Source of the DNA: an archaeon
Lineage (GTDB): Archaea; Iainarchaeota; Iainarchaeia; Iainarchaeales; CSSED10-239
Length of the DNA stretch: 32,000 nt
Direction of reading: 5' to 3'
Assembly: GCA_035400625.1 (NCBI GenBank)
Contig: DAOMZT010000002.1
Span: 60,001 to 92,000, forward strand
Shown: positions 2,553-29,617 of the stretch, in pieces
Layout: every line of letters begins with the position of its first letter
How positions within the stretch are numbered: the stretch's first letter is position 1
Notes under the pieces: model-generated
Told to the model about the DNA's origin: nothing
Databases searched by the model: none
Seen by the model: the letters and a program-made list of their open reading frames with translations, nothing else
Translations under genes and position numbers: made by a program

Positions 2553-5500
2553 TTATTTATAAAATTTACAATAATCTGTAACCTGGCAACAATCTAGTTT
2601 TCTTTTGTAATAAGATATATAATTAGAACTACAATCTACATTACTCATATCGATCAGAGTAATTCTGCCATAGTGGAACGGTAATTTTAAAGCCCCAGAA
2701 TTTAACTTTTCTTCAAGAGTGTTATATGTTACTTTTGCAGGGGCACCAGGACCTGATGCATGAATATATTGATGATTGCCATTTGGTAACTTTTTGTCAT
2801 AAATACCTGCGTGACCAAAATAATATTTAGTGTGTAAAAATAACAAATCTCCTGATTGTAGTTTATCCAAATCTGCTCTAGTTTCTATAGTACCAACAAT
2901 ACCTAAAATGTGTCCTTTACGTAAATCAGAATCTTTTTTCTTAACTGGCTCTATAAAATCAGCAATTGTACAATCATTTTCGAATATTTCTTTACAGGAA
3001 GTAGATCCATCTATGTAACCTAAATCTCTCATTACTACATATAATAACCCCACACAATCAATTCCTTTCTTCAGTTGAAAACCCCCATCTAATTTATATC
3101 CATTTCTGCCACCAAAAATATATTTAGTTCCTAAATTTGCATAATGCCTTGCTCTTTCCGCAATTTTTTGAGAAAACTCATTTTGTTCTAAATATTCTAT
3201 ATCTCCTTCCCCTATATTATTTGGGTCTTCATAATAATCAGTTTTTGATTTTCTGTCTTGTGATATTTTTTCAAGTTGTATTAATTGCGCATTTGTTAGA
3301 TTTATATATGTTTTAGGATATATATCTGGATTTAATATAACATCTTTTATATTTTTTATATTTGTGTTTTTAGGCACATATATTCTTTTTACTCTATTTC
3401 TTATATCCTTAGTTAATATACTTATTTTCTGACCATCCACTGTACTTTCAGCAATTAATGGTAGTCCTGTTATTGTTTTTCCAATATATATTGCTAAATG
3501 AGTATATTCTCTATTTTCATCATTATATTTACTTGTGGGATTATAGATCCCTATTATTGCACCATCAACTAATATATCTATATATTGATAATATGTCTTA
3601 CCATCTTGAACTTCCTTATTTTCTTTACAGCAATTTTTCCCAGTAAATGCATTCTCTTCGCAAACAGATTTTCCTACACAAACATCTGATGCTTCCCAGA
3701 TTAAATTGTAATTGTCTATTGCCCCTTTCTTAGTGTCGAAAGCCCATGCATGAGCGCCTGGATTTAGGTAATTTTGGAATCCATTAACATAGGTGTTTTG
3801 TCCAAAATCCATAACATACTTTACTGGATAATTTGCTTTTGCAGGAACTAATAAAAGTTTATCATAGTTATAATGCCCCAAGTCCTTTTTTAGCATTAAT
3901 TTTATGTTTTTATCTTCCAGAGTTTTAAGATAAACATTCTTTTTAGTGTCCCAGTATTTGTGATCTAGTTTCTCGTAGGCACCTAATTTAGAAGATGAAA
4001 GACCTGTACTTAAATTATATTTTAAAAAATATTGAGGGTCTCTAAAATATTTCCTCTTTATTACAAGATAATTAATTAATACCCTTACCTCTTTTGTGCT
4101 CTTTATATTTGCTCCATCTTTTACAAAAAAAGCAGTTGGCTTAAAAAGATCAGAAAACTTGCCTGCATTATATATTTGCTGAGCATTATCTTTATTAGAC
4201 AAACTTGCTAAAACATAAATTGAATTAATACTGTTTTCATTTTCAAGTACAAAGTCCTCAAAAGAAAATGGATTACTTGATTTTTCACGACTATTTTTTA
4301 TAAGATAATTAAGTTCTTTAATATAATCAGAGGTAAATAAAACTGTAGGACCAAAATCATCTTTATTATTCTTTATAGCATTAATTAAGAACCCAAAGTA
4401 GCCATTGTCGTTATTGATTATGCCATTATATCCTAAATTATAAAATTTGTTTTTGTTGCCATTATATACATTATTAAGCAAATGTGTGTTGATTTCTTTA
4501 AAATCACCTAATGCAAGATACTGGAATTGCTCTTCTTCTGCTAGCTGTAATGGCAAAGTGTTTGAAATTGTGGTTGTCTGCTTTGAAGTTACTTGCTCAA
4601 TATTTATTAAGTTACCAGAATCTCTGCCACTCAAATCTATTTGAGCAAAACCATATAATTTCGGATTTAGATTATTATTACAATTTGAAAGCTCGGAGAT
4701 TAGCGACCATAGTTGAAAAGCCTGCTCTAAAGAGAGGTCATAAGCTTTGGCTACGCGGAAGATTGTGTCGGTATATTCGTCATTGTCTTTGCGAAAACAA
4801 AAATGTTCGCGGGTTAAGGACAAATCAACCAATAATTCTTTAGTGTTTATGTCCTCAAAGGATTGATCTTGAAAATCTGATACTACATTGAAATTATTCA
4901 GAATACTATTTAATACACCATCAATTACAACACTTTCTGAAGATTTTATTTTTTGAATATTAAAGTTATCAATATCTTTTTGAGTAATATAACATTGACC
5001 AGAAATTGTAGGATTCTCACAACCTTTTGGAAGAGCATAAATACTACTTAATTGTATTGGGTCTTTACGAAATAATATCATGAATTTTTGGGTTTCAATT
5101 GGTGATAAAAATTCAGGCTCGAATTTTACTTCAAAATTAAAACCATTACCTATTTCTTCTTTTGTGCCAATCAGTTTTGATTTTAGAACAAATAAAATCG
5201 GAAAAGAATATAAATTTTTATTGTCTTCTAAATCAGCAATACATTTTTCTGGGTTGTGCACATTATTTTTTGAAAGATAAGCCACTAAACTACTTTTGGT
5301 TCTGGGAGCAATTATCTTTTCAATAACATAATTTACATTGTCTAAGTTGATATAATTGACTGCTATTAAATCCTCATTTTTTTTAGAATAGTAGCTTCTA
5401 ATGGCATTAGAACAAGATGAATCAACACCATACTTGGTATTATAAGAATTAAAATATACATTTTCAAAACCTGCAAAAACATCTATATATTTTGCTTTGG

Positions 5501-5771
5501 AATTAATAACATACGGGACTTGTCCAGGATTTGGAATAAATATATTTTTATAAACAATTTCTTTTTTTTCGATTTCATTATTTTTATTAGAAATAATATA
5601 AGATAAAATATTGTCAGATATCGGTCCTTTTTGTTTTGAAATATAATGATTAAATAACTCACGAACATGATTTATCTCAACTAAATCGGAGGGCAACTCA
5701 AAAGAATAAATAGGGCTAAATAATAATATTAAAAATAAAAAAATCATAAAACCTTTAATTTTTGATTGCAT
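2553..5771 (-). CDS. Secreted 1072-aa multidomain cell-wall hydrolase-like protein: SLT-like motif, CHAP-like module lacking the Cys nucleophile, and a C-terminal NlpC/P60 domain with a Cys-rich tail
   Basis: Sec-type signal peptide (GFMIFLFLILLFSPIYS). NlpC/P60 motifs are YIFGGRNGY, GIDCVGLLYVV (Cys906, codon 3054..3056), GDLLFL, FGHAGIY and YIHASG. The mid-protein papain-like module has EYTHLAIYIG (His758) but NYPVKYVMDF where the paralog has NYCARYVKDF. The SLT-like string is AKAYDLSLEQAFQLWSLISELSNCNNNLNPKLYGFAQIDL (Glu360, codon 4692..4694). Confidence 0.75.
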   Translation of the reverse strand: MQSKIKGFMIFLFLILLFSPIYSFELPSDLVEINHVRELFNHYISKQKGPISDNILSYIISNKNNEIEKKEIVYKNIFIPNPGQVPYVINSKAKYIDVFAGFENVYFNSYNTKYGVDSSCSNAIRSYYSKKNEDLIAVNYINLDNVNYVIEKIIAPRTKSSLVAYLSKNNVHNPEKCIADLEDNKNLYSFPILFVLKSKLIGTKEEIGNGFNFEVKFEPEFLSPIETQKFMILFRKDPIQLSSIYALPKGCENPTISGQCYITQKDIDNFNIQKIKSSESVVIDGVLNSILNNFNVVSDFQDQSFEDINTKELLVDLSLTREHFCFRKDNDEYTDTIFRVAKAYDLSLEQAFQLWSLISELSNCNNNLNPKLYGFAQIDLSGRDSGNLINIEQVTSKQTTTISNTLPLQLAEEEQFQYLALGDFKEINTHLLNNVYNGNKNKFYNLGYNGIINNDNGYFGFLINAIKNNKDDFGPTVLFTSDYIKELNYLIKNSREKSSNPFSFEDFVLENENSINSIYVLASLSNKDNAQQIYNAGKFSDLFKPTAFFVKDGANIKSTKEVRVLINYLVIKRKYFRDPQYFLKYNLSTGLSSSKLGAYEKLDHKYWDTKKNVYLKTLEDKNIKLMLKKDLGHYNYDKLLLVPAKANYPVKYVMDFGQNTYVNGFQNYLNPGAHAWAFDTKKGAIDNYNLIWEASDVCVGKSVCEENAFTGKNCCKENKEVQDGKTYYQYIDILVDGAIIGIYNPTSKYNDENREYTHLAIYIGKTITGLPLIAESTVDGQKISILTKDIRNRVKRIYVPKNTNIKNIKDVILNPDIYPKTYINLTNAQLIQLEKISQDRKSKTDYYEDPNNIGEGDIEYLEQNEFSQKIAERARHYANLGTKYIFGGRNGYKLDGGFQLKKGIDCVGLLYVVMRDLGYIDGSTSCKEIFENDCTIADFIEPVKKKDSDLRKGHILGIVGTIETRADLDKLQSGDLLFLHTKYYFGHAGIYDKKLPNGNHQYIHASGPGAPAKVTYNTLEEKLNSGALKLPFHYGRITLIDMSNVDCSSNYISYYKRKLDCCQVTDYCKFYK
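4369..4898. repeat. Copy 1 of a 530-bp dispersed direct repeat (partner at 7001..7530)
   Basis: Base-by-base comparison at offset 2632 shows that 4369..4862 equals 7001..7494 (494 bp, no mismatch). There is one T/C difference at 4863/7495, and identity then continues to 4898/7530. Flanks on the low-coordinate side stay highly similar to about 3880/6510. Flanks on the high-coordinate side diverge abruptly. Confidence 0.95.
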
Positions 5772-5784
5772 AATTTATTTTCCA

Positions 5785-8391
5785 CTATCCACTACCATAA
5801 TCTTCTATTTCTTCAGGACTCTCCTGATTTTCTTCATCAAATTCTCCTGGCAAATAAGGATTTTCATAAAGTGATTCATCTATTCCTGTTGTTCTAAGAT
5901 CAATTAACTGTAACAATTTTTTTGGGCTCATAATGACATATGTTGGCGGGTATTGATTTCTTAAAGAATAAATATCTCTGATGTTTTTAATATTTGTGGT
6001 CTTAGGGACATAAATCCTTTTTATTTTTTTTCTTAATTTATCATTTAATAAAGAAATAGATTGACCATTTGAAATACTCTCGGCAACTAAAGGCACGCCA
6101 ATTACGCTTTTGCCAATAGTTATCACAACATGAGTATATTCTCTATTTCTAGTATTATAACGACTACCGGAATTATAAATGCCAATTATCGCTCCATCAA
6201 TATAAAGCAAAGGATCATTATAAACACTAGATGTTTGTAATTTTTTTGTTTCATAACAACAGTCGCGTTTTGTTGGAACTGAAGAGCATTTATTTTTATT
6301 ATCACAAATGCCTGATGCTTCCCAAATTAAAGTATAATTATTTATTGCTTCAGCCACTGTGTCATACCCCCAAGCATTCGCACCCGAATTAGGATAATTT
6401 TGGAACCCATTTAGATATGCTTTTTGTCCAAAATCCTTGACATAACGAGCACAATAGTTTGGTGTGCCTTTTATAGCATACAAATCATTAAAATTATAAT
6501 GCTTTAAATCTTTTTTTAGCATTAATTTTATGTTTTTATTTTCCAGAGTTTTAAGATAGATATTCTTTTTAGTGTCCCAGTATTTGTGATCTAGTTTCTC
6601 GTAGGCACTTAATTTAGAAGGTGAAAGACCCGTACTTAAATTATATTTTAAAAAATATTGTGGGTCTCTAAAATATTTCCTCTTTATTGCTAGATAATTA
6701 ATTAATACCCTTACCTCTTTTGTGCTCTTTATATAATTACCTTCTTTTTGGAAAAAAGATGTCGAAGCAAATATTTTTGAATGGTTTCCCACACTATATA
6801 TTTTCTCTTTATATTCATTGTTATTATTAGATAAACTTGCTAAAACATAAATAGAATTAATATTTACTGGGCTTTCAATAATAAAGTCTTCAAAAACAAA
6901 TGGTTTTGTAGATTTTTCACGACTGTTTTTTATAAGATAATTAAGTTCTTTAATATAATCTGATGCAAATAAAACAGTAGAACTAAAATCATCTTTGTTC
7001 TTCTTTATAGCATTAATTAAGAACCCAAAGTAGCCATTGTCGTTATTGATTATGCCATTATATCCTAAATTATAAAATTTGTTTTTGTTGCCATTATATA
7101 CATTATTAAGCAAATGTGTGTTGATTTCTTTAAAATCACCTAATGCAAGATACTGGAATTGCTCTTCTTCTGCTAGCTGTAATGGCAAAGTGTTTGAAAT
7201 TGTGGTTGTCTGCTTTGAAGTTACTTGCTCAATATTTATTAAGTTACCAGAATCTCTGCCACTCAAATCTATTTGAGCAAAACCATATAATTTCGGATTT
7301 AGATTATTATTACAATTTGAAAGCTCGGAGATTAGCGACCATAGTTGAAAAGCCTGCTCTAAAGAGAGGTCATAAGCTTTGGCTACGCGGAAGATTGTGT
7401 CGGTATATTCGTCATTGTCTTTGCGAAAACAAAAATGTTCGCGGGTTAAGGACAAATCAACCAATAATTCTTTAGTGTTTATGTCCTCAAAGGACTGATC
7501 TTGAAAATCTGATACTACATTGAAATTATTTAGCAAATCCCTAATTTTATTGTCTCTTGCAATAATTTCTGGAGTAGTATATTCTCCTACATTAAATTGC
7601 AAAACATCTCTTGTTGTTATATAACAAGAATTTAAGTTTGGATTTGTTTTACATTCAGGATCTGGCAGAGAATATTTAGATGTTATTTTTATTGGTTCTT
7701 TTTTAAATAAAATATTTCCTGTTATTGGCTTAACAGGATTTATAAACTCAGGAGTGAATTTTATCTTAAAATTTAGATTCTGTGATAATGTCTCTGTATT
7801 CCCAATAAACTTACAATTTATTTCTAATATCAAAGGATATTCTACCAAAATTTTATTATTTACTAAAATATCAAAAACACCATCTGGATTAGAAACACCT
7901 TTAGAATGCATAAAGTCAATTATCTTTTCTTTAGTGATTGGTAATAATATCTTGTCAAGTAAAATGTCTTTATTGTTAAAATTATCACTGCTTTTAAATG
8001 GCAAAGAATTATAATATTCTCTTAGTTTATTTATAGTATCCTTTTGAGAATTAAGAATGCTTTTTTTTAAAAAATAGACCTTTTTAAATTCTGCAGAAAC
8101 AGCCAAAGACTCTGTATTTGGATTTATAACTTCAGGGGTTAATTCAGCAATATCACCAACAACAACATCTCTATACCTTATATTCTTTGTTATCATTTTT
8201 CCTTGGTCATTAATTGTGTATACAAAATAAACGGATTTAGGAACTTCGCTTTTTTTATAATACCTATTTAATATATCTCTAAATTCAGATTCGCTATAAA
8301 TATCAGTAAATTGAATAGGGCTAGCAAATGTTTGATCTATAATTAATAACACAAACAATAAAAACAAAAAATATTGATATTTATGCTTCAT
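5785..8391 (-). CDS. Secreted 868-aa paralog: SLT-like motif plus a CHAP-like papain-fold module with an intact Cys/His pair, and no NlpC/P60 domain
   Basis: Signal peptide YFLFLLFVLLIIDQTFASP. It is collinear with the 1072-aa protein over most of its length. NYCARYVKDF carries Cys647 (codon 6451..6453) and EYTHVVITIG carries His754 (codon 6130..6132). The C-terminal tail is acidic. Its start overlaps the upstream gene by 4 bp (8388..8391). Confidence 0.7.
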   Translation of the reverse strand: MKHKYQYFLFLLFVLLIIDQTFASPIQFTDIYSESEFRDILNRYYKKSEVPKSVYFVYTINDQGKMITKNIRYRDVVVGDIAELTPEVINPNTESLAVSAEFKKVYFLKKSILNSQKDTINKLREYYNSLPFKSSDNFNNKDILLDKILLPITKEKIIDFMHSKGVSNPDGVFDILVNNKILVEYPLILEINCKFIGNTETLSQNLNFKIKFTPEFINPVKPITGNILFKKEPIKITSKYSLPDPECKTNPNLNSCYITTRDVLQFNVGEYTTPEIIARDNKIRDLLNNFNVVSDFQDQSFEDINTKELLVDLSLTREHFCFRKDNDEYTDTIFRVAKAYDLSLEQAFQLWSLISELSNCNNNLNPKLYGFAQIDLSGRDSGNLINIEQVTSKQTTTISNTLPLQLAEEEQFQYLALGDFKEINTHLLNNVYNGNKNKFYNLGYNGIINNDNGYFGFLINAIKKNKDDFSSTVLFASDYIKELNYLIKNSREKSTKPFVFEDFIIESPVNINSIYVLASLSNNNNEYKEKIYSVGNHSKIFASTSFFQKEGNYIKSTKEVRVLINYLAIKRKYFRDPQYFLKYNLSTGLSPSKLSAYEKLDHKYWDTKKNIYLKTLENKNIKLMLKKDLKHYNFNDLYAIKGTPNYCARYVKDFGQKAYLNGFQNYPNSGANAWGYDTVAEAINNYTLIWEASGICDNKNKCSSVPTKRDCCYETKKLQTSSVYNDPLLYIDGAIIGIYNSGSRYNTRNREYTHVVITIGKSVIGVPLVAESISNGQSISLLNDKLRKKIKRIYVPKTTNIKNIRDIYSLRNQYPPTYVIMSPKKLLQLIDLRTTGIDESLYENPYLPGEFDEENQESPEEIEDYGSG
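7001..7530. repeat. Copy 2 of the 530-bp dispersed direct repeat (partner at 4369..4898)
   Basis: Same comparison as for copy 1. Both copies lie in frame inside the tandem paralogous CDSs and encode the same roughly 176 residues. Confidence 0.95.
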
Positions 8392-9323
8392 CTTTTTTTC
8401 CTGCTTGTCCGTCTATTTTTTTTTGGTTTATTAAAGATTATCATTAGTATAATTAAAACAATTATAATAATTAACATAATTAAAAAAGCATTAATCTTCT
8501 GTGGTTTTTCAGAATCTTCAATTATCGGAACAGAAGAAGGTCGCTCATCTACAGGTGGTTGTTCCTCTATTATTTCACTATCTTCTTCTTGATTTGCATT
8601 TATTTCTTCTTGTCTATTTATTTCTATCAATTGGTTCATTATTCTTCTGTTTTCTTCTTCTGTTATTTCAGATAAAGCAAAATCTATTCTTTGAGTATAT
8701 CTTTTCTCTTTAACTTTATCTAATATTTCTATGGTTAATTTATATCTTTCATACCCAGCGATTGTCGTGTTTAGAATCTTATATGGAAATGTGATGTTGT
8801 TATCTGTTAGAAGCACTATGTTGTCGCTTGTTTTGTCTGTTTCAGTAGTTATATTATATGTAAATTTATCATAGTTTATTTTATCAGAAAAAACAAAAAT
8901 TTCTTCATCAAACCAAAAATCATAATTATCAGGTATAGAATTTTTACAATCTTCTGTATTACATAAATAAAAATCTCCAATATCTGTGTTTTCTGTTATA
9001 TCTATCTGAAATTCTTTTTCTTCTATTAGGCTATCATTAGCACCCATAAACTTATAATTTATTTTTAAATTAGAGGAGATTTGGTTATCAAGATATACAG
9101 GAATTTCAGTTATTTCTTCTATTGTGTAATTATTATCTAAAAGGGTTTCAAAATCTGTATTTATTCTTATATTTATATATTCTATGTTAGGATTACTAAT
9201 ATCAGAAATACCAATATCTATTACTTCCCCATAATAAAACTCATTGTTATAATCTGTATTATAAGCATAGATATTAGAGGCTAAAAATACAAATATACCA
9301 AATAAAAACCACTTATTTTTCAT
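8388..9323 (-). CDS. Surface protein with an N-terminal signal peptide, a C-terminal transmembrane anchor and a basic tail, function unknown
   Basis: The ORF top codon at 9350 is TTG. ATG at 9323 gives MKNKWFLFGIFVFLASNIYA, a signal peptide, and lies about 30-40 nt downstream of a TTTATAAAT box. An acidic, Pro-containing stalk (EEDSEIIEEQPPVDERPSSVPIIEDSEKP) is followed by AFLIMLIIIIVLIILMIIF and then KPKKNRRTSRKKR. Confidence 0.6.
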   Translation of the reverse strand: MKNKWFLFGIFVFLASNIYAYNTDYNNEFYYGEVIDIGISDISNPNIEYINIRINTDFETLLDNNYTIEEITEIPVYLDNQISSNLKINYKFMGANDSLIEEKEFQIDITENTDIGDFYLCNTEDCKNSIPDNYDFWFDEEIFVFSDKINYDKFTYNITTETDKTSDNIVLLTDNNITFPYKILNTTIAGYERYKLTIEILDKVKEKRYTQRIDFALSEITEEENRRIMNQLIEINRQEEINANQEEDSEIIEEQPPVDERPSSVPIIEDSEKPQKINAFLIMLIIIIVLIILMIIFNKPKKNRRTSRKKR

Positions 9324-9352
9324 TTTATCACTGAAATTATTAAAGAACAAAA

Positions 9353-9363
9353 TATTTATAAAT
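9353..9363 (-). promoter_or_regulatory. Archaeal TATA-like box (ATTTATAAAT) upstream of the 8388..9323 gene
   Basis: A near-palindromic TTTATAAAT lies in the 39-nt spacer between the short pilin gene and the anchor-protein gene, about 30-40 nt from the ATG at 9323. The same motif recurs upstream of other genes (1619..1628, 2395..2404, 12505..12513, 16038..16050, 29619..29627). Confidence 0.35.
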
Positions 9364-9842
9364 TATACAATTTCGCAATCTAAAGTAAATACCTTCTTTG
9401 GGCATGTTCCGTTTGTTAAAATTATGTCTGTTATTGTAGCAACATCTATACTTTGATGTTCTACTTCTCCTTTGACATATGTGAAATCTGTAGCTGTTGA
9501 AAGACTTGTTATTTCCCCCGAATCTATGACTTTTTCAAAGGCACCTGAAATAATAGTTTCATTTGCATGTATTGTTAAAACAAGATTAAATATCTTCAGA
9601 TTAGAGTTATTTACAAAAACAAAATTTATTGTTTTTGTATCTGAATCAATATTACAAGAAGTAATTTTAAAGTTAGCATTAATACAAGAAAGATCGCTTG
9701 CTTGCTTTAGTTGGCCAGAAGTAACATCCATTTGCTCTTTAGAATAGTTTTTGCTCCAAGCAAAGAAGATAACAGATAAAATGACCACAACTACAATTAT
9801 TAAAGATGTTACTAATATTGCAGATGCTCCTTTTTGATTCAT
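9363..9842 (-). CDS. Archaeal type IV pilin-like protein (class III signal peptide)
   Basis: The N-terminus MNQKG|ASAILVTSLIIVVVVILSVIFFAW fits the archaeal prepilin pattern of a short basic leader, Gly at -1 and a roughly 20-aa hydrophobic helix. The whole protein aligns with the first ~160 aa of the neighbouring 449-aa protein (shared NNSNLK(I/L)FNL and ILTNGTCPK). Confidence 0.7.
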   Translation of the reverse strand: MNQKGASAILVTSLIIVVVVILSVIFFAWSKNYSKEQMDVTSGQLKQASDLSCINANFKITSCNIDSDTKTINFVFVNNSNLKIFNLVLTIHANETIISGAFEKVIDSGEITSLSTATDFTYVKGEVEHQSIDVATITDIILTNGTCPKKVFTLDCEIV

Positions 9843-9853
9843 TTATTTCTCCA

Positions 9854-11203
9854 TTATTGTTTTGAAATTACTGAAATGTTGTTTGCAGGAATTGTAGCAA
9901 GAACATTACCTTTTCCACCAACTATATCAAAGTGAGAAATATTTGATTTTGAATAATATGTTAAAAATAATTCAGTATCAAATTGTATTGTAGATAATGC
10001 TTTACTATCTAACACATAAGGACTTGGTGCGGCATTGCTCATTTCTGAAGCAGTTGTACTTGGATCTGTTTGTATAAAATATTTTTCATTATTATCATAA
10101 ACTAAAAATTTCATGCCTTCTTCTGTAGTGATATCAGAATTTAAAGTAATTGTAAGTTCTCCACTGATCCTATTATAATCTACAGAATTTCTACTTTCAC
10201 TGCTATCATTTATAGTATACTCAAAAGAAGAAATTGTGCTATCTCCATAACCTGATTTTACACACCTTGCTATCACCCTTTGGGTATTTTCACTTGGAGA
10301 TAATTTTATTGGTCCAGTATAAGGAGTATTAGGAAGGGGTGGCGTTGCTGAGGGACCTTGTGTAACAATATAATAAATATTTGCATCTTCACTAGAGCCT
10401 AATGTAATTTCTGTTGCGCCAGAATATGTTCCTGCTGGTGGTGTTGCAGTTGGAGGATTTAATTTATGTGTAACATTATAGACCCAGGTGTTTACATCGC
10501 TTGCTAAAAAACCCTCTGCACTAGCTATGGCTTTAAGGGTCATTGTTCTGTCTTCTGGAATTGTTATAGCACTAGAATAAACAGAGCTTGCTGTTGTTGG
10601 TGTAGACCCATCTATTGTATAGTAGATTGTTGTGCCATTTTCAGCAGAGAGAGTAACAGATTGTTCAACATAATATGTTCCAGAAGCAACACTTGCAGTT
10701 GGTGGCCAAAATGTATTAACTACAGTACATCCACTAATATCCAAAATCTCTTTTGGGCAGGTGCCATTTGTTAAAGTAATGTTATCTATTGTGTCTATAT
10801 CTATTGCATGAAGTGTGCTTTGGTCTCCTCTTGTAAAATTGAAATCTGTGTCTGTTGATAGAAAAGCCATTTCTCCTGGATTAATATTGTCTTGAAAAAC
10901 ACCTGCTACACTAGTGTCTCCATTTATTGAAAGATTTAGATTAAATAATTTTAAATTAGAATTATTAATTATTGTTAATCTTATAGTTTTTGTTGTATTT
11001 AAGATAGTACAAGAATCAACAAAAAACTCTGCATTCAAACATTCTAAATCACTCGCAGATCTTAATTCTGCACTAATCTCATCCATTTTATTTTTGGAAG
11101 AGTTTTTTGCCCAAGCCAAAAACATTCCTGTCAGAATTACAGTTATAGCTATGATTATGGTAATTGTTATAATTTCAGAAACGCCTTTTCTTGTAAATTT
11201 CAT
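9854..11203 (-). CDS. Archaeal pilin-like protein extended by two chitobiase/hexosaminidase C-terminal-type (CHB_HEX_C-like) domains and a further C-terminal domain; putative adhesive pilin
   Basis: MKFTRKG|VSEIITITIIIAITVILTGMFLAWAKN closely resembles the canonical archaeal KGVSPVIATVLLIAITV pilin N-terminus. Residues ~167-242 (SGTYYVEQSVTLSAENGTTIYYTIDGSTPTTASSVYSSAITI...) match the CHB_HEX_C signature as I remember it. A second, weaker copy covers residues ~249-331 (AGTYSGATEITLGSSEDANIYYIV...PYTGPIKL). Confidence 0.7.
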   Translation of the reverse strand: MKFTRKGVSEIITITIIIAITVILTGMFLAWAKNSSKNKMDEISAELRSASDLECLNAEFFVDSCTILNTTKTIRLTIINNSNLKLFNLNLSINGDTSVAGVFQDNINPGEMAFLSTDTDFNFTRGDQSTLHAIDIDTIDNITLTNGTCPKEILDISGCTVVNTFWPPTASVASGTYYVEQSVTLSAENGTTIYYTIDGSTPTTASSVYSSAITIPEDRTMTLKAIASAEGFLASDVNTWVYNVTHKLNPPTATPPAGTYSGATEITLGSSEDANIYYIVTQGPSATPPLPNTPYTGPIKLSPSENTQRVIARCVKSGYGDSTISSFEYTINDSSESRNSVDYNRISGELTITLNSDITTEEGMKFLVYDNNEKYFIQTDPSTTASEMSNAAPSPYVLDSKALSTIQFDTELFLTYYSKSNISHFDIVGGKGNVLATIPANNISVISKQ

Positions 11204-11207
11204 ATTA

Positions 11208-12446
11208 TTACCTAATTTGATCTCTTTCTTTAAGCTCTCTCTTTAATATACCTTTTACAACTATATACAGATAAATTGTAGTTGTAAGATTTGTAATAAG
11301 TATTACTAAAAAAACAATAGACACAATCTTATTTGATAAAACAGGATCTAGCCCCATAGTTAAAAGACTTGTTGCCAAAACTGCTGCTGCAAGTCCTCTA
11401 GCATGAAGCGAACAAATAATCTTTTGATCATCTTTACTTAGTTGCCTAGAAAATAATAATTTAGTTGTTAAAAATCTTACTAAAAGCAAAACCAAAATAA
11501 TGACTAGAGCAATTAATGTGGTTTCTAAGGTAATTATAGATAAATCAATAATCACACCCATGTACACAAAGAAAAAAGTCTTAATAAGCAAAGAAATTTC
11601 AGTTTGAAAATGTGCCATTGTTTTGTTTATGCTGTAGTCTTTCATATTAAATGCCTTTAATATTGTTGAAGAATTACCCAACACCAAACCAAACACCAAG
11701 GCACAGAAAGAACCATTGCCATTTAGATATTCTGTTGCAACATACAATATAAATAAAAAGGCCAAAGTCAAAAGATAATCAAATTGCTTTGCCTCTGTGT
11801 AATCTCTTAATACCTTTATCCAAATAAACCCACCGACTACCCCGATTACTGTAGCAATAGCAAATGCGGAAAATATCCCTTGTGCAATTTGGGTAGTACT
11901 AATTGTTTGGGTAATAATTAAGCCAGCAATAGTCATGGTAGCAACAACACAAAAAACATCAGTCACTGCAGATTCTAATGTTAATATGATTTGGGTCTTT
12001 GATGTTGCTGTTGATTTGCTTGCAAGTGGAATAACAATTGCAGAACTTGTGCCACCTATTATTGCACCAGTTAAAAAACCATAAAGCCAACTAAACCCAA
12101 AGATATAATGTAAAAGAACACCACTAATTCCTGCTGTTAACAAGAATACAATTAAAGTAAATAAAAACGAATTTTTAATCTCGTTTATTACGCTATTAAA
12201 ATTTAACCATAAACCGCCATCAAATAATAAAATAATCAAAGCAACTGCTGAAAAAATAGGAGTAAAAGATTTCAATAATTCGATAATATTACTTGGTATC
12301 AAATGAAATACAGGCCCAAGAAGCATACCTACTATAATTAATATTAAAATATCAGAAATCTTTGTTTTCTTAAAAAAGATATTTCCAAAAAAGCCAAGAA
12401 GAAATATTCCTGAAATTAATAATAAAAAAAGCAAAGGATTGACCAT
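11208..12446 (-). CDS. Cation:proton antiporter (CPA / Na+-H+ exchanger family), membrane domain only
   Basis: 412 aa with about 11-13 hydrophobic helices. It has a typical CPA N-terminus (LLISGIFLLGFFGNIFFKKTKISDILILIIVGMLLGP). No soluble RCK/TrkA-type C-terminal domain is visible. A GGTGG Shine-Dalgarno-like motif precedes the ATG at 12446. Confidence 0.7.
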   Translation of the reverse strand: MVNPLLFLLLISGIFLLGFFGNIFFKKTKISDILILIIVGMLLGPVFHLIPSNIIELLKSFTPIFSAVALIILLFDGGLWLNFNSVINEIKNSFLFTLIVFLLTAGISGVLLHYIFGFSWLYGFLTGAIIGGTSSAIVIPLASKSTATSKTQIILTLESAVTDVFCVVATMTIAGLIITQTISTTQIAQGIFSAFAIATVIGVVGGFIWIKVLRDYTEAKQFDYLLTLAFLFILYVATEYLNGNGSFCALVFGLVLGNSSTILKAFNMKDYSINKTMAHFQTEISLLIKTFFFVYMGVIIDLSIITLETTLIALVIILVLLLVRFLTTKLLFSRQLSKDDQKIICSLHARGLAAAVLATSLLTMGLDPVLSNKIVSIVFLVILITNLTTTIYLYIVVKGILKRELKERDQIR

Positions 12447-17068: not shown

Positions 17069-18904
17069 TTATTCTACAGTTACTGATTTTGCAAGATTTC
17101 TTGGTTGATCAATAGGACAATTTTTTAAGTCAGCTATATAATAAGCTAAAAGTTGCATAGGAATAACATTAACAAAAGGCGTTAAATTTGTACAGATTGA
17201 TGGAACAAAGATAACATGATTACATAATTTTTCTATCTCTTCATCTCCTTGAGTAGCTAACGCAATAATTCTTGCACCTCTTGCTTTTGCCTCATGTATG
17301 TTAGATAAAACTTTTTCATAGTTTAAATCACTGTTTGCAATAACCACTACTGGCAAGCCTTCATCAATTAAAGCAATGGGTCCGTGTTTCATCTCTGCTG
17401 CCGGATAGCCTTCTGCATGGATATAAGATATTTCTTTTAGTTTCAAAGCGCCCTCTAGGGCGATAGGGTAATTGATGCCTCGTCCAAGATATAGTGCGTT
17501 TTTACAGGTAAAATATTCTTTTGCAATTTCTTTTATTTTATTTTCATTATCTTTCTTTAACTCCCCTCTTACTATTTGTGGCAATTCCAAAAGGTTATTT
17601 ATCAATTTTTTTGCGACACTGTCATCTATGCTTTCTATTATTCTTCCAATATAAAGTGTTAAAAGATTCAAACACACCAATTGGCTTGTAAATGCTTTTG
17701 TTGAAGCAACCCCTATCTCTGGCCCTGCTCTTATGTAAATTCCGCCATCACATTCTCTAGCAATAGTGGAACCAACAACATTAACAATACCTATTACCTT
17801 TGCTCCTTTTTTCTTTGCTTCCCTAACAGCTGCCAGGGTATCTGCAGTTTCTCCTGATTGGCTTATTGCAATAACCAAAGTATTATTGTCAATTATTGGG
17901 TTTCTGTATCTAAACTCAGAAGCATAATCCACTTCTACTGGTATTCTTAAGAAACCCTCCATAGAAAACTTAGCAACAAGGCCACAATGCCATGATGTGC
18001 CACAAGCAACAATAATTATTCTTTTAATATTTTTTATTTGCTCTGTAGTTAGGTTTATACCACCTAATTTAGCAGTATTATTTTCAAAATCAATTCTTCC
18101 TAATATTGCTTGCTTAATAGTTTCTGGTTGTTCATGTATTTCTTTTAACATAAAATGCTTATAGCCTTGTTTTTCTATCTCTTCTAGATTCATTTCTATC
18201 TCTGTGGTTTCTTTATCCAAAGTTATATTATCAAGAGAAGTAATCTCACAACCTCCATTAATACAAGCAATCTCGTTATCTTCTAAATAGATTACTTTTT
18301 TGGTGTGTTCAATTATTGCAGAAATATCGCTTGCAACAAAATATTCATCTTCTCCAATTCCAATAATTATTGGAGAACCACATCTTGCAACAATTAGTTC
18401 TTTACCTTGTTTATCCATAACCACAAGACCAAAACTTCCAACTACTTTTTTTAAGGTTTTTTGAACTGCTTTTTTTAAGTCTCCAGAATAGAACTTTTCA
18501 ATTAAGTGTGCTAAAACTTCAGTGTCTGTTTCTGACTTGAAAACGTGACCTTCTTTTTCTAAAAATTTCTTTAAAGTTTCAAAGTTTTCAATTATGCCAT
18601 TATGAACTAGAGCGATATTTCCTTTACAATCTGTTTGAGGATGGGCATTTACTACATTGGGCTCTCCATGTGTTGCCCATCTAGTGTGTGCAATTCCTAT
18701 ATTTGCCTGTGGGTTGTTTTTTTTAACTTCTTCTTCTAGATTTATTATCTTTCCTTTGGCTTTAATAATTTTAAGCTCTTTAGTCTTGTTATCAATGACA
18801 GCTAATCCACAAGAATCATAGCCTCTATATTCTAGTCTTTTAATTCCATTAATTAATATAGGAACACAATCTTTTTTTCCAAAATATGCACTTATACCAC
18901 ACAT
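17069..18904 (-). CDS. glmS: Glutamine--fructose-6-phosphate aminotransferase (isomerizing)
   Basis: 611 aa. The N-terminal Ntn nucleophile is MCGI. Class II glutaminase blocks are present (GIAHTRWATHG, HNGIIEN). There are two SIS domains (SQSGETADT). The canonical C-terminus is LAKSVTVE. Confidence 0.95.
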   Translation of the reverse strand: MCGISAYFGKKDCVPILINGIKRLEYRGYDSCGLAVIDNKTKELKIIKAKGKIINLEEEVKKNNPQANIGIAHTRWATHGEPNVVNAHPQTDCKGNIALVHNGIIENFETLKKFLEKEGHVFKSETDTEVLAHLIEKFYSGDLKKAVQKTLKKVVGSFGLVVMDKQGKELIVARCGSPIIIGIGEDEYFVASDISAIIEHTKKVIYLEDNEIACINGGCEITSLDNITLDKETTEIEMNLEEIEKQGYKHFMLKEIHEQPETIKQAILGRIDFENNTAKLGGINLTTEQIKNIKRIIIVACGTSWHCGLVAKFSMEGFLRIPVEVDYASEFRYRNPIIDNNTLVIAISQSGETADTLAAVREAKKKGAKVIGIVNVVGSTIARECDGGIYIRAGPEIGVASTKAFTSQLVCLNLLTLYIGRIIESIDDSVAKKLINNLLELPQIVRGELKKDNENKIKEIAKEYFTCKNALYLGRGINYPIALEGALKLKEISYIHAEGYPAAEMKHGPIALIDEGLPVVVIANSDLNYEKVLSNIHEAKARGARIIALATQGDEEIEKLCNHVIFVPSICTNLTPFVNVIPMQLLAYYIADLKNCPIDQPRNLAKSVTVE

Positions 18905-18947: not shown

Positions 18948-20360
18948 TTAACAATATTTTGTATATTTACAACAACCACTAAAATCTTTAGATACTGAAA
19001 TATAATTTTTACTACAATCTATATTATTTATATCAACACCGGTAATCCTTTGATACTGGAAAGGATACTTGAGTGTTCCTTTACTTAATTTATCTTCTAA
19101 ATAATCATATTTTACTGATCCTGCAATTTTTTTACTACCTGAGGCGTGAATATATTTGTGTTTCCCAGATTCTACCCCAACATATATTGCAGCATGTCCA
19201 AAAATTCCTGCACTTTTTGTATTTAAAGACAAGAAATCTCCTGGTTTTAAATTATCCAAATCAGACTTATTTTTTATATTTCCAACAATCCCTTTTATAT
19301 GTCCTTTGTTATTTTCTAAATAATCTGCAAATGCACAACCGCTACTAAACATCTGCAAACAACTTGCAGAATCATCTAAATATCCTAAATCTCTTAATAC
19401 TACATATTTTAAACCAACACAATCAAAATCAGATTTTAATTTTCCTATTCCTTTAACAGTATATCCATTTCTTCCTTCCCATTTATATTTTCTGCCAAGA
19501 TATTTTTCTGCTTGATTTAAAATTTTTAAACCAATTTGTGAATTTATGGTTGAATGATACATGGTTGGTTTATCTGATTGCTTTTCTTCCGTTATTGGCA
19601 CAGGGTCTTCTTTTATTACTGGCGCTCTTGTGAATTTAATTGCATCAAAATCCCACCTATCTAAACAACTTTTTTGAACATTGCATTTTTTTCCTTTACA
19701 ATAAAAATCAACTATTTTTTTATTTATTTTACATAAATTAAAAATAGAATGTTCTTTGTTATCTAGAACATAAAGATTTACATATGCTAAATTTATTAAT
19801 TGGCTATCATCAGAGAACTGCATAAATATTAAAACAAACAGATTATTTTCTGTGCCTTTTTCTATATTAAATTCAAACAGATTTTGTGTACCAAAAATAA
19901 AATTTATCAAATCCCAATAGTCTATTTTAAAAGTATTATTTATTATATAATTTGATTGATTTGCATAATTTTTAAAAGAATGAGTTTTTGCAGATTCTTT
20001 AATATTGCTAGCAGGATTGTTTAAATAAAAATTATTAATTTCATCTAAAATATCATTTAGTTCAGTATCTATATCATATAGTTTTTCAGGAGTAGTAATT
20101 ATTGCAAATATTGGCTGATCTTTATTAAACCCTGATAAATGAACTTGTATGGTTTTGGTTTTATTCTTGTAATCAATAATGTATGATTCTGGAGAATCTA
20201 TTGTTTTTGCTTTATGCCAGACATTATCTATTTTATAAGATACATCTTTAATTTCTAATAAATTGTAGTTATACTGAGAATAAATAGTTTCGCTGGCATT
20301 AACTTGTTGCAATAAGAATAATAAAGAAAATAAAACAAAAATTATATTTCTTTTATTCAT
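18948..20360 (-). CDS. Secreted 470-aa protein: N-terminal module shared with the 925-aa neighbour, plus a C-terminal NlpC/P60 domain and Cys-rich tail
   Basis: Signal peptide IIFVLFSLLFLLQQVNA. NlpC/P60 motifs are KYKWEGRNGY, FDCVGLKYVV, PGDFLSL, FGHAAIYVG and YIHASG. The tail DCSKNYISVSKDFSGCCKYTKYC parallels the tail of the 1072-aa protein. Confidence 0.75.
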   Translation of the reverse strand: MNKRNIIFVLFSLLFLLQQVNASETIYSQYNYNLLEIKDVSYKIDNVWHKAKTIDSPESYIIDYKNKTKTIQVHLSGFNKDQPIFAIITTPEKLYDIDTELNDILDEINNFYLNNPASNIKESAKTHSFKNYANQSNYIINNTFKIDYWDLINFIFGTQNLFEFNIEKGTENNLFVLIFMQFSDDSQLINLAYVNLYVLDNKEHSIFNLCKINKKIVDFYCKGKKCNVQKSCLDRWDFDAIKFTRAPVIKEDPVPITEEKQSDKPTMYHSTINSQIGLKILNQAEKYLGRKYKWEGRNGYTVKGIGKLKSDFDCVGLKYVVLRDLGYLDDSASCLQMFSSGCAFADYLENNKGHIKGIVGNIKNKSDLDNLKPGDFLSLNTKSAGIFGHAAIYVGVESGKHKYIHASGSKKIAGSVKYDYLEDKLSKGTLKYPFQYQRITGVDINNIDCSKNYISVSKDFSGCCKYTKYC

Positions 20361-27075: not shown

Positions 27076-28044
27076 TTATTTCTTCTTCCTTCTAGAATAG
27101 GCCTTAATTTGTCCCCACAGAGATAATAAACCTATGGCAGTTACTGAACCTGCACCAACTGCATTTATAGTGCCATCTATTCCAGATTCTCTCTGTACAA
27201 ATTTCAGAACTTCTCTTGAATTTCTTGGGTTTTTTGGGTCTTCTTTATAGATTTCTAAACTTTTTATTACCTCATTTAATCCTCTTATAATTTTAGGATT
27301 ATTACCAAATCTAGTAGCAAATTCTTCAACAGATAAACTAGCTAAATAATTTACTCTGGCAGTATCGTTTAGTTCCCCCATTTTAATAGCAACTTCGCCT
27401 GAAAATTTATCATTTGTTTTAACATCTTTTATAATTTCTTTGTATATACTATCTAGCTTAGCCTTTTCAGATGCATATAGTTTATCATATACATTTCTTA
27501 ATTTTGCAACACCTAAATCAATCTTAGTAATTTCTTTTCCATCCCAAAAAAACACTTCTTCAGGTCTTGCTTTTTTATTTAATTCTGTTACTTTCTTTTC
27601 TACAACACCATCTATTCTTTTAGAATTGGCAATTTGTTTTTTCTCAATTTCCATTGCTTTTTTAGCATCCATTTCTACAACTATAATTTTATTTTGTTTT
27701 TCATCCAAATAATGTAGCTTTCTTTTAATATCTTTATTTTTACTTTTTTGTAATTTTTGTGAATATTCTCTTCTAGCTTTGGCATTTAACTCTCCAATTC
27801 TTTCACTTACTGACTTGATTTCAGTAAGATAATTGCCTTTTGCTAAAATTAAATTTCTATTAATGCTATGCGATCTTACTGCTGATTTCGCAGCCTTACC
27901 TACAAAATAAGGAGTAGTTGCTATTGTTCCGATAAGTGCTGCAGTTGCTACTTTTTTCCCAAATTTTGTGGGTCTCTTTATTTTATTACCTAATTTGGAT
28001 CTTTGTTTTCCCAAATTTATTCTTTGTCTATATTTTGGTGGCAT
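27076..28044 (-). CDS. Unknown double-anchored membrane protein, paralog B
   Basis: It is collinear with paralog A over the central domain (KSVS.R..ELNA, YLDEKQNKI..VEMDAK, EVFFW.G.EI, SEKA.LD.IY, FGNNP.I..GLN). It has the same N-terminal MPPK start and TM/TM architecture. Confidence 0.6.
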   Translation of the reverse strand: MPPKYRQRINLGKQRSKLGNKIKRPTKFGKKVATAALIGTIATTPYFVGKAAKSAVRSHSINRNLILAKGNYLTEIKSVSERIGELNAKARREYSQKLQKSKNKDIKRKLHYLDEKQNKIIVVEMDAKKAMEIEKKQIANSKRIDGVVEKKVTELNKKARPEEVFFWDGKEITKIDLGVAKLRNVYDKLYASEKAKLDSIYKEIIKDVKTNDKFSGEVAIKMGELNDTARVNYLASLSVEEFATRFGNNPKIIRGLNEVIKSLEIYKEDPKNPRNSREVLKFVQRESGIDGTINAVGAGSVTAIGLLSLWGQIKAYSRRKKK

Positions 28045-28129
28045 AATTATCTACCTTTTTTTTAATTTTCTACAATCTAAAAGTAAAAGAACAAAACACT
28101 TTATATTTGTTTTCTTTTTTAATCAGTAT

Positions 28130-29617
28130 ATGACCTTACAAAACAAGCAAGAAAAACTATCTTGGCTTCTTGAAAAATCAATTATAAGTCTTACTAAAGA
28201 CAAATCCAAAAACTACGGTCTACTTTTTAGTGGAGGCATTGATTCTTGTCTTCTTGCTCTTCTTCTAAAAAAACAAAAAGTTAAGTTTACTTGCTTTTTT
28301 GCATATGTAAAAAACAATACTGAGCCTAAAGACTTGGCTTTTGCAAAAAAGGCAGCAAAAGAACTTAAATTAAAGCTTGAAATAGTTTCTATAGACAAAA
28401 AAGAAATACCTAACATTCTTCCAGAGATTATTAACATAACTGATAACACTAGTCCAGTTTCTGTAGGTGTTGCAATACCAATCTATCTCTCATGCAAAAA
28501 AGCCAAAGAGAAAAAAACAGATGTCTTGTTGTCTGGTCTTGGTGCTGATGAGCTATTTGCAGGATACAGCAGATTTACTATACAAAATCAAAAACAGGAA
28601 ACCAAAAAATGCCTTGATAATATTCAAAAGGATAATTTAGATAGAGATAAAGCTATTGCAAAATATTTCAAATTAGCAATTAAACACCCATATCTTGATA
28701 AAGCAGTCATTGATTTTGCTTTGTCTTTGCCATCAAGCCTTTTGATTTCTTCAAAACAAAACAAAATAATTTTACGCGAAATTGCAGAAAGCCTAGGGCT
28801 CTCCAAAGAGCTTGTTAAAAGAAAAAAACTTGCATGCCAATATGGCAGTAATTCTGATAAGATACTAGAAAAGCTAGCAAAAGAAAAAAAATATAAAACA
28901 AAAACAGAATATCTTTCTTCTTTTAGAAAAGAAAAAGTAGGTGTGCTTTTCTCAGGTGGAAAAGACTCTAATCTTTCATTATGGCTTGCACAAAAGGCAG
29001 GAAAAGAAATTTCTTGTCTTCTCTCTATGATCCCTGAAAATGTAGATTCATATATGTTTCAAACACCAGAAGTTAATTTTCTCAAAATGCAGGCTTTTGC
29101 TTTAGATATGCCTCTACTAATTACAAAAACAAAAGGCGAAAAGGAAAAAGAACTTGTTGATCTTAAACAGGCAATTGTCTTTGCTAAAGCAAAGTTTGGA
29201 TTAACAGGAATTGTTGCTGGAACCCTTTATAGTAATTATCAGAAAGACAGAATTGAAAAGATATGTAAAGAATTAGATTTAAATCTGATTACTCCTCTTT
29301 GGCATGTGAAAGAAGAAGAGGAGATAAGATTGCTTTTAGATAATGACTTTATGTTTGTTATATGTAAAATTGCAGCTTTTGGCTTTTCTGAAAAAATGCT
29401 AGGCAAAGTCATTGATTACAAAGATTTAGAGGAGCTTAAAAAACTAAACAAGAAATACCATACAAACATAGCTGGAGAAGGCGGAGAATATGAAACTTTA
29501 GTTCTTGATTCTCCTGTTTTTAAGAAAAGAATTTCAATAATTGAAAGCCAAAAAATAATGAAAAATGAATTTACAGGAAACCTAATAATTAAAAAGATAA
29601 AACTAGAAAAAAAATAA
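28130..29617 (+). CDS. Fusion protein: asparagine-synthetase-type PP-loop domain (no glutaminase domain) plus a diphthine-ammonia ligase (Dph6/MJ0570-type) domain
   Basis: The real start is probably the ATG at 28130 (MTLQNKQ). The upstream part of ORF 27968.. overlaps the divergent gene and starts on a non-ATG codon. The N-terminal half has GLLFSGGIDSCLLALLL and LLSGLGADELFAGYSRF, which are AsnB C-domain motifs. The C-terminal half from ~28931 has VGVLFSGGKDSN, SYMFQTP, GIVAGTLYSNYQKDRIEKICKELDL and AGEGGEYETLVLDSPVF. This is near-collinear with archaeal MJ0570/PH1257-type proteins as I remember them. Confidence 0.75.
   Translation: MTLQNKQEKLSWLLEKSIISLTKDKSKNYGLLFSGGIDSCLLALLLKKQKVKFTCFFAYVKNNTEPKDLAFAKKAAKELKLKLEIVSIDKKEIPNILPEIINITDNTSPVSVGVAIPIYLSCKKAKEKKTDVLLSGLGADELFAGYSRFTIQNQKQETKKCLDNIQKDNLDRDKAIAKYFKLAIKHPYLDKAVIDFALSLPSSLLISSKQNKIILREIAESLGLSKELVKRKKLACQYGSNSDKILEKLAKEKKYKTKTEYLSSFRKEKVGVLFSGGKDSNLSLWLAQKAGKEISCLLSMIPENVDSYMFQTPEVNFLKMQAFALDMPLLITKTKGEKEKELVDLKQAIVFAKAKFGLTGIVAGTLYSNYQKDRIEKICKELDLNLITPLWHVKEEEEIRLLLDNDFMFVICKIAAFGFSEKMLGKVIDYKDLEELKKLNKKYHTNIAGEGGEYETLVLDSPVFKKRISIIESQKIMKNEFTGNLIIKKIKLEKK

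Follow-up and report, generated by a model that had tools for sequence, protein, structure and literature searches.

A recurrent archaeal locus pairing type IV pilin-like proteins with an anchored surface protein and giant secreted proteins that carry predicted cysteine peptidase domains

Cell wall hydrolases are carried by DPANN and other archaea, where they are probably aimed at bacteria (PMC9723730, PMC10936187, PMC12352652). The described examples include large GH23 lytic transglycosylases in Woesearchaeota (PMC9723730), wall hydrolases in metagenome-assembled genomes (MAGs) of marine DPANN archaea (PMC10936187), and modular peptidoglycan hydrolases with experimental killing (PMC12352652). 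Among ultrasmall episymbionts, Saccharibacteria employ type IV pili (T4P) for host attachment (PMC9894109, PMC12206443). The molecular basis by which DPANN archaea attach to other cells and extract resources from them is largely unknown, and genome surveys report isolated hydrolase genes only. We analyzed a 32-kb stretch of contig DAOMZT010000002.1 (hereafter, the window) in which genes for two pilin-like proteins, an anchored surface protein, and two giant secreted proteins form a co-oriented array. The locus provides a defined and conserved set of parts, comprising pilins, a cognate anchor, and exchangeable enzyme modules, in which comparative signatures mark the residues and domains of interest.

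Like the GH23 enzymes of Woesearchaeota and the modular peptidoglycan hydrolases of Nanoarchaeota and Halobacteria, this module comprises exported, wall hydrolase-like proteins that an archaeon should not need for itself. Its recognizable catalytic domains, however, are cysteine peptidases rather than GH23 or M23 domains. The module genes also lack a known wall-binding domain and are coupled to a cognate anchor and to pilins, an arrangement not described in the published accounts (PMC9723730, PMC10936187, PMC12352652). Lacking such a wall-binding domain, the giants would escape screens for archaeal peptidoglycan hydrolases that rely on domain content, including the published screen in which one is required. 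A second point of comparison is offered by modular and host-attachment T4P, such as the bimodular pilins of Streptococcus sanguinis and the T4P of Saccharibacteria (PMC9894109, PMC12206443); the larger pilin of the window, p449, likewise joins a pilin module to extra domains. In contrast to those systems, the module contains archaeal class III-type pilins with no assembly genes nearby, and their filament is putative. To our knowledge, the genetic link of pilins to hydrolases has no counterpart in those T4P systems.

In Sulfolobales, SlaA and SlaB constitute a stalk-and-canopy surface pair. The module likewise pairs a signal peptide-bearing protein, with a single C-terminal transmembrane helix, with a large and unanchored secreted protein. 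It differs from SlaA/SlaB in lacking sequence similarity, in occurring as several pairs per genome, in the enzyme domains of the large partner, and in showing no sign of a lattice. The giant family, its cysteine peptidase content without a known wall-binding domain, the cognate anchor, the constant association with pilins, and the loss of a catalytic site matched by an added domain all appear to be undescribed so far.

A recurrent pilin, anchor, and giant module

The core genes of the array in the window are as follows (coordinates are those of the window; aa, amino acids).

9854..11203, minus strand: p449, modular type IV pilin-like protein; N-terminus coded at 11063..11203; first CHB_HEX_C_1/Fn3_assoc domain at 10490..10687
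9363..9842, minus strand: p159, short pilin-like protein; the most constant pilin of the module
8388..9323 (alternative TTG start at 9350), minus strand: s311, anchored surface protein of 311 aa; overlaps the start of g868 by 4 nt
5785..8391, minus strand: g868, giant secreted protein of 868 aa; leader; N-domain at 7672..8304; central domain at 6892..7524; putative papain-like domain at 5842..6504
2553..5771, minus strand: g1072, paralog of g868, 1072 aa; Pro at the internal Cys site (3813..3833); C-terminal NlpC/P60 domain at 2748..3131

Together with an antiporter gene considered below, these are the six open reading frames (ORFs) named in a preliminary description of the window, and they lie on the minus strand as placed there. 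Their coordinates bear out the tight, co-oriented packing that it reported, with spacing of −4 to 39 nt. From downstream to upstream, the spacers measure 13 nt (g1072/g868), −4 nt (g868/s311), 12 nt (s311/p159), 11 nt (p159/p449), and 4 nt (p449/antiporter). The s311/p159 spacer becomes 39 nt with the ATG start of s311 at 9323, which is the start favored by the orthologs.

The neighborhood is conserved beyond the window. The core module, made up of one or more pilins, an anchored protein of ~300 aa, and at least one giant, was present in all of the independent related loci that we examined, and the link between pilins and giants anticipated in the preliminary description was retained in each. 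Gene orders in the related loci (L numbers) are listed here.

L001: antiporter, large pilin, short pilin, anchor, one giant
L002: antiporter, large pilin, short pilin, anchor, two giants
L003: diadenylate cyclase (DAC), then short pilin, anchor, giant
L004: DAC, then large pilin, short pilin, anchor, giant
L005 to L007: large pilin, short pilin, giant, anchor, giant
L008: antiporter, short pilin, anchor, giant
L017: DAC, short pilin, four anchor-plus-giant/hydrolase units, one of them a fusion
L018 and L009: two pilins ~3 kb from a fusion giant; an anchor-giant pair adjoining RuBisCO

Even in the lineage of L009 and L018, set apart by RuBisCO and pyrBI, the pilin genes lie within ~3 kb of a giant. 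In L018, which belongs to the most divergent lineage, a 108-aa Cys-rich secreted protein (9711-10037 of that locus) and a 166-aa non-pilin protein replace the pilin upstream of the anchor-giant pair; the pilins stand ~9 kb upstream of that pair, next to the fusion giant.

The sixth gene of the array behaves differently.

11208..12446, minus strand: antiporter, CPA-type cation/proton antiporter; Na+/H+ exchanger family PF00999, E 1.9e-42, 145.9 bits against a cutoff of 26.2; 4 nt from p449

Its assignment as an antiporter, made in the preliminary description, is secure, but its membership in the module is not: the gene is present in the window, L001, L002, and L008, but L003, L004, and L017 lack it in the interval from the DAC gene to the pilin. 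Owing to these absences, the antiporter is a dispensable neighbor rather than a conserved member of the module.

The anchored protein s311 consists of a leader, an ectodomain of ~210 aa with a YYGEVIDIG motif and two conserved Cys, an acidic linker, one C-terminal transmembrane helix (282-312 in the numbering of the TTG ORF), and a basic tail. This layout is kept across an 11-member alignment, in agreement with the earlier description of a C-terminally anchored surface protein with a signal peptide. The leader was read from the sequence and is conserved in the same alignment, and its hydrophobic stretch falls just below the scan threshold. No Pfam or PDB family match to s311 was found. In every locus, an s311-type gene directly precedes a giant or hydrolase gene; L017 has four such pairs, of which three overlap by 4-11 nt. 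Two relatives, P0018 and P0019, are natural anchor-giant fusions in which the anchor protein and its transmembrane helix are followed by a short basic loop, a giant leader, and the giant itself, with a predicted topology that places both ectodomains outside the cell. Given the recurrent overlapping pairs and the natural fusions, we read s311, a type I membrane protein, as a membrane stalk for, or a specific partner of, the giants. A toxin-immunity relationship between anchor and giant was also considered and rejected, since the fusions suit an anchor rather than an inhibitor, and since a cell that does not make the target polymer has no use for an immunity protein.

The N-termini of both pilin-like proteins consist of a few mostly basic residues, KG/[AV]S, and a hydrophobic segment of ~20 aa (p449, MKFTRKG/VSEIITITIIIAITVIL, class III-type; p159, MNQKG/ASAILVTSLIIVVVVIL), and a pattern scan of the window returned these two as its only such N-termini. 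The K, the G, and four Cys of the pilin head are invariant in an alignment of p449, p159, and six relatives. The first ~160 aa of p449 share 46% identity with p159 (blastp), which identifies the two as paralogs. The Pfam family Pilin_N (PF07790) matches six of the eight family members at E ≤ 1, with a best E of 2.7e-05; of the window proteins, p449 scores 19.4 bits against a gathering score of 25.2, and p159 has no match. The NCBIfam model UpsA matches p159 at 5.2e-05, under its cutoff. The earlier call of two pilins with class III signals thus stands on the N-terminal motif, the invariant residues, and the family-wide Pilin_N matches, but not on the Pilin_N scores of the window proteins themselves. 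On this family-level evidence, we accept p449 and p159 as predicted archaeal type IV pilin-like proteins.

In p449, the class III-type N-terminus is followed by a pilin head of ~130 aa with the four conserved Cys, two CHB_HEX_C_1/Fn3_assoc Ig-like domains, and a C-terminal domain without an assigned function. CHB_HEX_C domains had been noted in p449 from the outset, and the assignment was confirmed by PF13290 (CHB_HEX_C_1; E 3e-21, 75.6 bits against a cutoff of 22, two stretches) and by Fn3_assoc (1.2e-17). The same domains occur in the large pilins of L002 and L004, and large pilins of relatives contain DUF5018-type domains matching glycan-utilization surface proteins of Bacteroides. By its domain content, p449 would be a pilin with extra Ig-like modules attached. 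Orthologs of p159 are found directly upstream of anchor or giant genes in L001-L006, L008, and L017.

The host is supported as an archaeon of DPANN type, specifically of Iainarchaeota type. Two MAGs, labeled 'Candidatus ainarchaeum sp.' and 'uncultured archaeon', contain relatives, and Candidatus Iainarchaeum is a member of the DPANN phylum Iainarchaeota. The window codes for a diphthamide synthase, and the flanks include an AdoMet_Synthase (PF01941) gene and, in one relative, RuBisCO; we take these genes to be archaeal-type. The MAGs of the relatives and these genes support an archaeal origin, as proposed in the preliminary description, and speak against a bacterial contig.

Architecture and catalytic sites of the giants

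The two giants share 58% identity over 848 aa (blastp), and both have N-terminal hydrophobic leaders. Searches with the giant body (~865 residues) retrieved 14 clusters from a 5.8-billion-sequence index, and exhaustive profile searching of 1.84 billion proteins brought up 18 representatives; a second, word-indexed homolog search with the family profile yielded no new members. The family profile matched no PDB sequence at E ≤ 10, and g868 has no Pfam match at all. The family alignment and an AlphaFold 2 (AF2) model of g1072 divide the body into a leader, an alpha/beta N-domain (aa ~30-240, predicted local distance difference test [pLDDT] ~80), a helical central region (aa ~290-630, pLDDT <50), and a mixed alpha/beta domain (aa ~630-850, pLDDT ~80). 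Mean pLDDT of the whole-chain model was 55, and Foldseek returned no match to it in the PDB at E ≤ 0.001. The structural check suggested in the preliminary description gave an N-domain and internal domain at a pLDDT of ~80, the central domain below 50, and no significant fold match.

Conservation is uneven along the chain, being lowest in the N-domain (mean identity 37%; 29% between g1072 and g868) and highest in the central domain (66%). Some giants are extended at the C-terminus by an add-on, in the form of a canonical NlpC/P60 domain or of a duplicated central domain, and in P0021 and P0024 the N-domain is joined directly to NlpC/P60. Judged by its sequence, the giant body is best described as a very small, lineage-specific family built of exchangeable modules.

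The predicted catalytic residues of the two giants map as follows.

Cys647 motif at 6439..6459, His754 at 6130..6141, Glu771 at 6076..6087, minus strand: predicted triad of g868, from the family alignment
Cys906 at 3045..3059, His987 at 2799..2816, His1004 at 2754..2768, minus strand: NlpC/P60 triad of g1072, aligned to E. coli MepS and YafL

In g1072, the NlpC/P60 domain (PF00877, aa 881-1008) scores 36.8 bits against a gathering score of 23, making g1072 the only giant of the window above threshold. Its motifs DC906VGL, GH987AGIY, and YIH1004AS are in register with the Cys/His/His of MepS, and each of the eight family members compared retains them. The domain is canonical and predicted to be active. 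It also matches PHROG 329, a minor tail protein, over the same region (4e-08). A homolog search with this domain alone returned nothing. No match was obtained by tblastn against phage and plasmid collections, so a recent phage or plasmid origin is unsupported.

The internal domain has a second candidate site. In g868, the pattern reads NYC647ARYV, EYTH754, and AE771S; across g868 and ten relatives, a Cys motif CA[RKQA][YF][VI] is followed by E[YF][TS]H and, ~17 residues on, by A-E-S, A-H-S, or I-H-M. In g1072 and nine relatives, Pro occupies the Cys position. One subclass of giants has lost all three positions together (Pro/Gln/Gln), which argues that they work as a unit. The state of this site tracks the C-terminal architecture: an add-on is present in all 10 giants with Pro at the Cys site and missing from 10 of the 11 that keep the Cys.

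Remote comparisons of the internal domain were informative only at a low level. By hhalign, the best signals were to C92 YaeF/YiiX (P = 9e-4, probability 23%, weak) and MepS/YafL (P = 2e-3, 14%), against controls at P of 0.2-0.7. In these alignments the catalytic His residues coincide, EYTHvaiYIGK stands opposite HVGIYIGN, and A-E-S stands opposite the third catalytic residue. No signal was obtained against the CHAP domain of the E. coli Gss amidase (P = 0.54), and no papain-like Pfam model reached E ≤ 10 for the internal domain. The top BFVD fold matches of the giants' domain were non-significant and mostly CHAP, NlpC/P60, and lysin proteins. In our reading, the internal domain is a divergent, papain-like cysteine peptidase domain of the NlpC/P60 superfamily that is not demonstrably CHAP; we predict it to be active in g868 and inactive in g1072, where the C-terminal NlpC/P60 domain would substitute for it.

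These results modify the enzyme content proposed in the preliminary description, which had placed SLT-like, CHAP-like, and NlpC/P60 motifs in both giants. NlpC/P60 holds for g1072, with its above-threshold score and intact triad, but not for g868. The CHAP-like Cys/His assignment is matched in g868 by a conserved Cys/His/Glu set, but Pro replaces the Cys in g1072, and neither CHAP (PF05257) nor SLT (PF01464) matches any of 15 giant family members, or the isolated internal domain, even at E ≤ 10. A three-enzyme arsenal in each giant is thus not supported; instead, the giants differ in which papain-like domain is intact.

Relative to described NlpC/P60 endopeptidases (PF00877; E. coli MepS/Spr; the phage tail lysins of PHROG 329), the C-terminal domains of g1072 and of nlpc470, a secreted protein encoded elsewhere in the window, share the threshold match and the Cys-His-His register. 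They differ in ending archaeal secreted proteins of ~470-1460 aa composed of otherwise unassigned modules, in an insertion of ~30 residues between Cys and His, and in a Cys-rich tail; they also lack detectable close relatives in phage and plasmid collections, and their host has no known murein. The internal domain resembles permuted or divergent papain-like amidases (Peptidase_C92 YaeF/YiiX; CHAP, PF05257) in giving its best remote signals to C92 and NlpC/P60 and in its Cys/His/acid-or-His pattern. In contrast to those amidases, it places Cys before His (unpermuted), with a Cys-rich insertion of ~100 residues between them.

The central domain has an invariant core of FCFR, SE.S.C, and G..Q (SELSNC and GFAQ in the window proteins). 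Characterized SLT domains have the motifs ES, GLMQ, and AYNxG within a lysozyme-like fold with the catalytic Glu at a helix end, and the resemblance to them is restricted to a few residues: a Glu-x-Ser at a helix end, G..Q 12-15 residues on, and then YNxGYxG, which is common. The SLT-like assignment of the preliminary description fails on every sequence comparison made, given the Pfam result above, the absence of a PDB profile match at E ≤ 10, and an hhalign probability of 0.1% against the SLT domains of E. coli K-12 (Slt, MltC, MltD, MltE, and MltF). An AF2 model of the central domain alone, built from a 16-sequence alignment, reached a pLDDT of 46.9, which makes its Foldseek result meaningless.

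Four relatives (P0006, P0007, P0015, and P0016) carry as their C-terminal add-on a diverged duplicate of the central domain (hhalign 95.9%, E 6e-9), in the position held by NlpC/P60 in other giants. The central domain is thus an autonomous, movable module, and its placement where NlpC/P60 sits in others suggests a possible effector role. In P0003-P0007, P0014, and P0016, a Cys-rich insertion of ~90 residues with several CxxC pairs, zinc ribbon-like in appearance, lies inside the central domain directly after the G..Q (alignment columns ~420-510); g868 and g1072 have a short Thr-rich linker in its place.

The central domain also contains the longest exact match between the two giant genes.

4369..4862, minus strand: identical block, g1072 copy; 494 nt, exact match to 7001..7494; covers the conserved central domain
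7001..7494, minus strand: identical block, g868 copy; 494 nt; longest exact match

The block lies within ~540 nt at 99-100% identity, with a sliding identity of 1.00 in the block versus 0.50-0.56 on the N-terminal side. An exact block with such a flank is the signature of recent gene conversion between tandem paralogs, or else of a repeat that troubles assembly. A 286-kb JGI contig (L020) with an identical g1072 begins inside g868 at approximately residue 370, in the region common to both genes. In a sister assembly (L001), the only giant, P0002, is a chimera whose front is of g868 type and whose back is of g1072 type; it could be a real deletion or an assembly collapse.

Possible roles of the module

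We tentatively favor, at somewhat short of an even chance, a stalk-anchored surface peptidase complex that works with adhesive pilins on a foreign wall, as a lineage-specific module of Iainarchaeota type. After export, the giants would be tethered to the cell surface by the anchored protein, as a canopy on a stalk, with the variable N-domain providing target recognition. Their cysteine peptidase domains, internal in g868 and C-terminal in g1072, would cleave peptide or isopeptide linkages in a foreign wall polymer, which may be the stem peptides of bacterial murein or the pseudomurein of methanogens. Pilins assembled by machinery encoded elsewhere would adhere to the same target cell. Opening of its envelope may depend on contact, as the preliminary description proposed. 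Where the internal domain lost its nucleophile, the added C-terminal catalytic domain may have taken over. If activity on murein or pseudomurein is borne out, the locus would reveal what type of partner this uncultured lineage has and would supply new scaffolds for lytic enzymes.

Several observations weigh against this interpretation. Enzymes of the NlpC/P60 fold also act on non-wall amides and as acyltransferases. Pilin_N falls under its Pfam gathering score for both window pilins, and the pilus ATPase, platform protein, and prepilin peptidase, already reported missing from the window in the preliminary description, are absent both there and from all related loci examined. Structure models of the central domain are poor (pLDDT <50), and no Foldseek match is significant. 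The relatives are also fairly close, and since the whole ~15-kb region from glmS through DAC to the pilins is collinear among several of them, part of the synteny may reflect inheritance rather than selection. Finally, Iainarchaeota have been proposed to be free-living, which weakens an argument from host dependence (PMC10936187).

That last proposal fits a role in nutrient scavenging, in which surface-held or released peptidases would break down wall debris and peptides in the environment as sources of carbon and nitrogen, the pilins would mediate general adhesion to surfaces or particles, and no specific partner cell would be involved. Export leaders and peptidase domains agree with such a role, as do the CHB_HEX_C/Fn3-type domains, which are common in secreted glycan-processing proteins, and the DUF5018-type domains of the relatives' large pilins with their Bacteroides counterparts. 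A dedicated membrane anchor and natural fusions, however, suit action at the archaeon's own surface better than bulk digestion. The fast-diverging N-domain and the paralog expansion look like adaptation to variable targets, and the cluster contains no muropeptide transporter or catabolic genes; we consider scavenging unlikely. The anchor-giant pairs might instead serve the archaeon's own envelope, either as components or as remodeling enzymes of its surface layer in the manner of SlaB and SlaA, with the peptidases processing its own surface proteins or an endogenous polymer. An anchored stalk beside a large, unanchored secreted partner recalls the Sulfolobales pair, the central domain is highly conserved, and glmS adjoins the second hydrolase locus. 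A structural coat, however, would be unusual in having up to four different pairs per locus and a gene content that varies among close relatives; the catalytic sites have been repeatedly lost and replaced, and there is no similarity to known S-layer families. An own-envelope function strikes us as quite improbable.

A further alternative would hold that the pilins and giants are functionally unrelated genes kept adjacent by close kinship, the giants being free antibacterial lysins, bacteriocin-like as in Halogranum. The collinearity extends to the wider region (glmS, the decapeptide-repeat protein, and DAC), no pilus machinery is nearby, and killing of bacteria by peptidoglycan hydrolases that archaea secrete is documented (PMC12352652). 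Nevertheless, the adjacency outlasts rearrangements, including gain or loss of the antiporter, gain or loss of the large pilin, and the swapped order of giant and anchor in L005, and it persists at ~3 kb in the L009/L018 lineage. The anchor-giant fusions speak against freely diffusing lysins. We hold this explanation to be rather implausible. A bolder extension of the favored surface-complex reading, which we regard as unlikely, is that the module is an undescribed contact apparatus: modular pilins would bring the target cell close and the anchored giants would breach its wall, with the recognition domains diversifying while gene conversion keeps the catalytic core uniform, and with the central domain a new wall-cleaving fold unrelated to the lysozyme and transglycosylase families. 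If so, Iainarchaeota, often thought to be free-living, would gain a predatory or parasitic route into murein- or pseudomurein-walled cells.

A second hydrolase locus and neighboring genes

A second pair of exported proteins is encoded upstream of the array.

18948..20360, minus strand: nlpc470, secreted NlpC/P60 protein; Pfam NLPC_P60 31.8 bits against a cutoff of 23; intact C/H/H triad
20394..23171, minus strand: g925, large secreted protein of 925 aa; no family match; Pro/Thr-rich linker; C-terminal domain without an assigned function

The C-terminal domain of nlpc470 is 50% identical to the NlpC/P60 domain of g1072. Its N-terminal domain is common to g925, where a domain of ~220 aa (residues 470-691) is 39% identical to it. 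The window thus codes for four exported proteins of the modular set (g868, g1072, nlpc470, and g925). Comparisons of g925 by hhalign against GH73, SLT, and central domains were negative. A motif resemblance had suggested a GH73 glucosaminidase at its C-terminus, which was dropped given an hhalign probability of 0.1% to FlgJ and no Pfam match; equating its N-terminus with the N-domain of the giants was likewise dropped (hhalign probability 0.5%). The nlpc470/g925 pair adjoins glmS (17069..18904), and an nlpc470-like gene also precedes glmS in L004.

The window is AT-rich throughout (~29% GC), and a scan of it for tRNA and Rfam RNAs found none. The preliminary description had raised the possibility that a TATA-like box at 9353..9363 splits the array into two units; TATA-like motifs occur in the window at chance level for DNA of 29% GC, and the box is not distinguishable from such chance occurrences. 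Scanning for sigma-70 promoters and terminators showed no enrichment and was set aside, as the model is inapplicable to archaea.

On the other side of the antiporter, a DAC-domain diadenylate cyclase gene (12558-13268) diverges from the array, and the 111-nt intergenic region between them (12447-12557) would contain both promoters. This gene is the constant upstream neighbor of the pilin genes in L001, L003, L004, and L017, and L008 has an ORF of matching size and orientation at its position. Beyond it, 13674-15929 codes for a 751-aa protein that consists nearly throughout of decapeptide repeats (Pfam Decapeptide, E 3e-128, 11 stretches), similar to the repeat region of DotG/IcmE. Proteins of similar size occupy this position in L001, L003, L004, and L008, with the family scan covering the window copy only.

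In L002, L003, L004, and L017, the last giant is trailed closely by a small gene and then a PIN-domain gene, and the window has a 135-aa ORF (1738-2145) at the corresponding position. At the opposite end of the window, 25878-28044 contains adjacent paralogs of 384 and 322 aa that are 43% identical, with very basic N-termini and no family match. The second of these overlaps by 77 nt the GTG start of an opposite-strand gene at 27968..29617, a single ORF that combines an asparagine-synthase/PP-loop domain with a diphthamide synthase (Diphthami_syn_2) domain.

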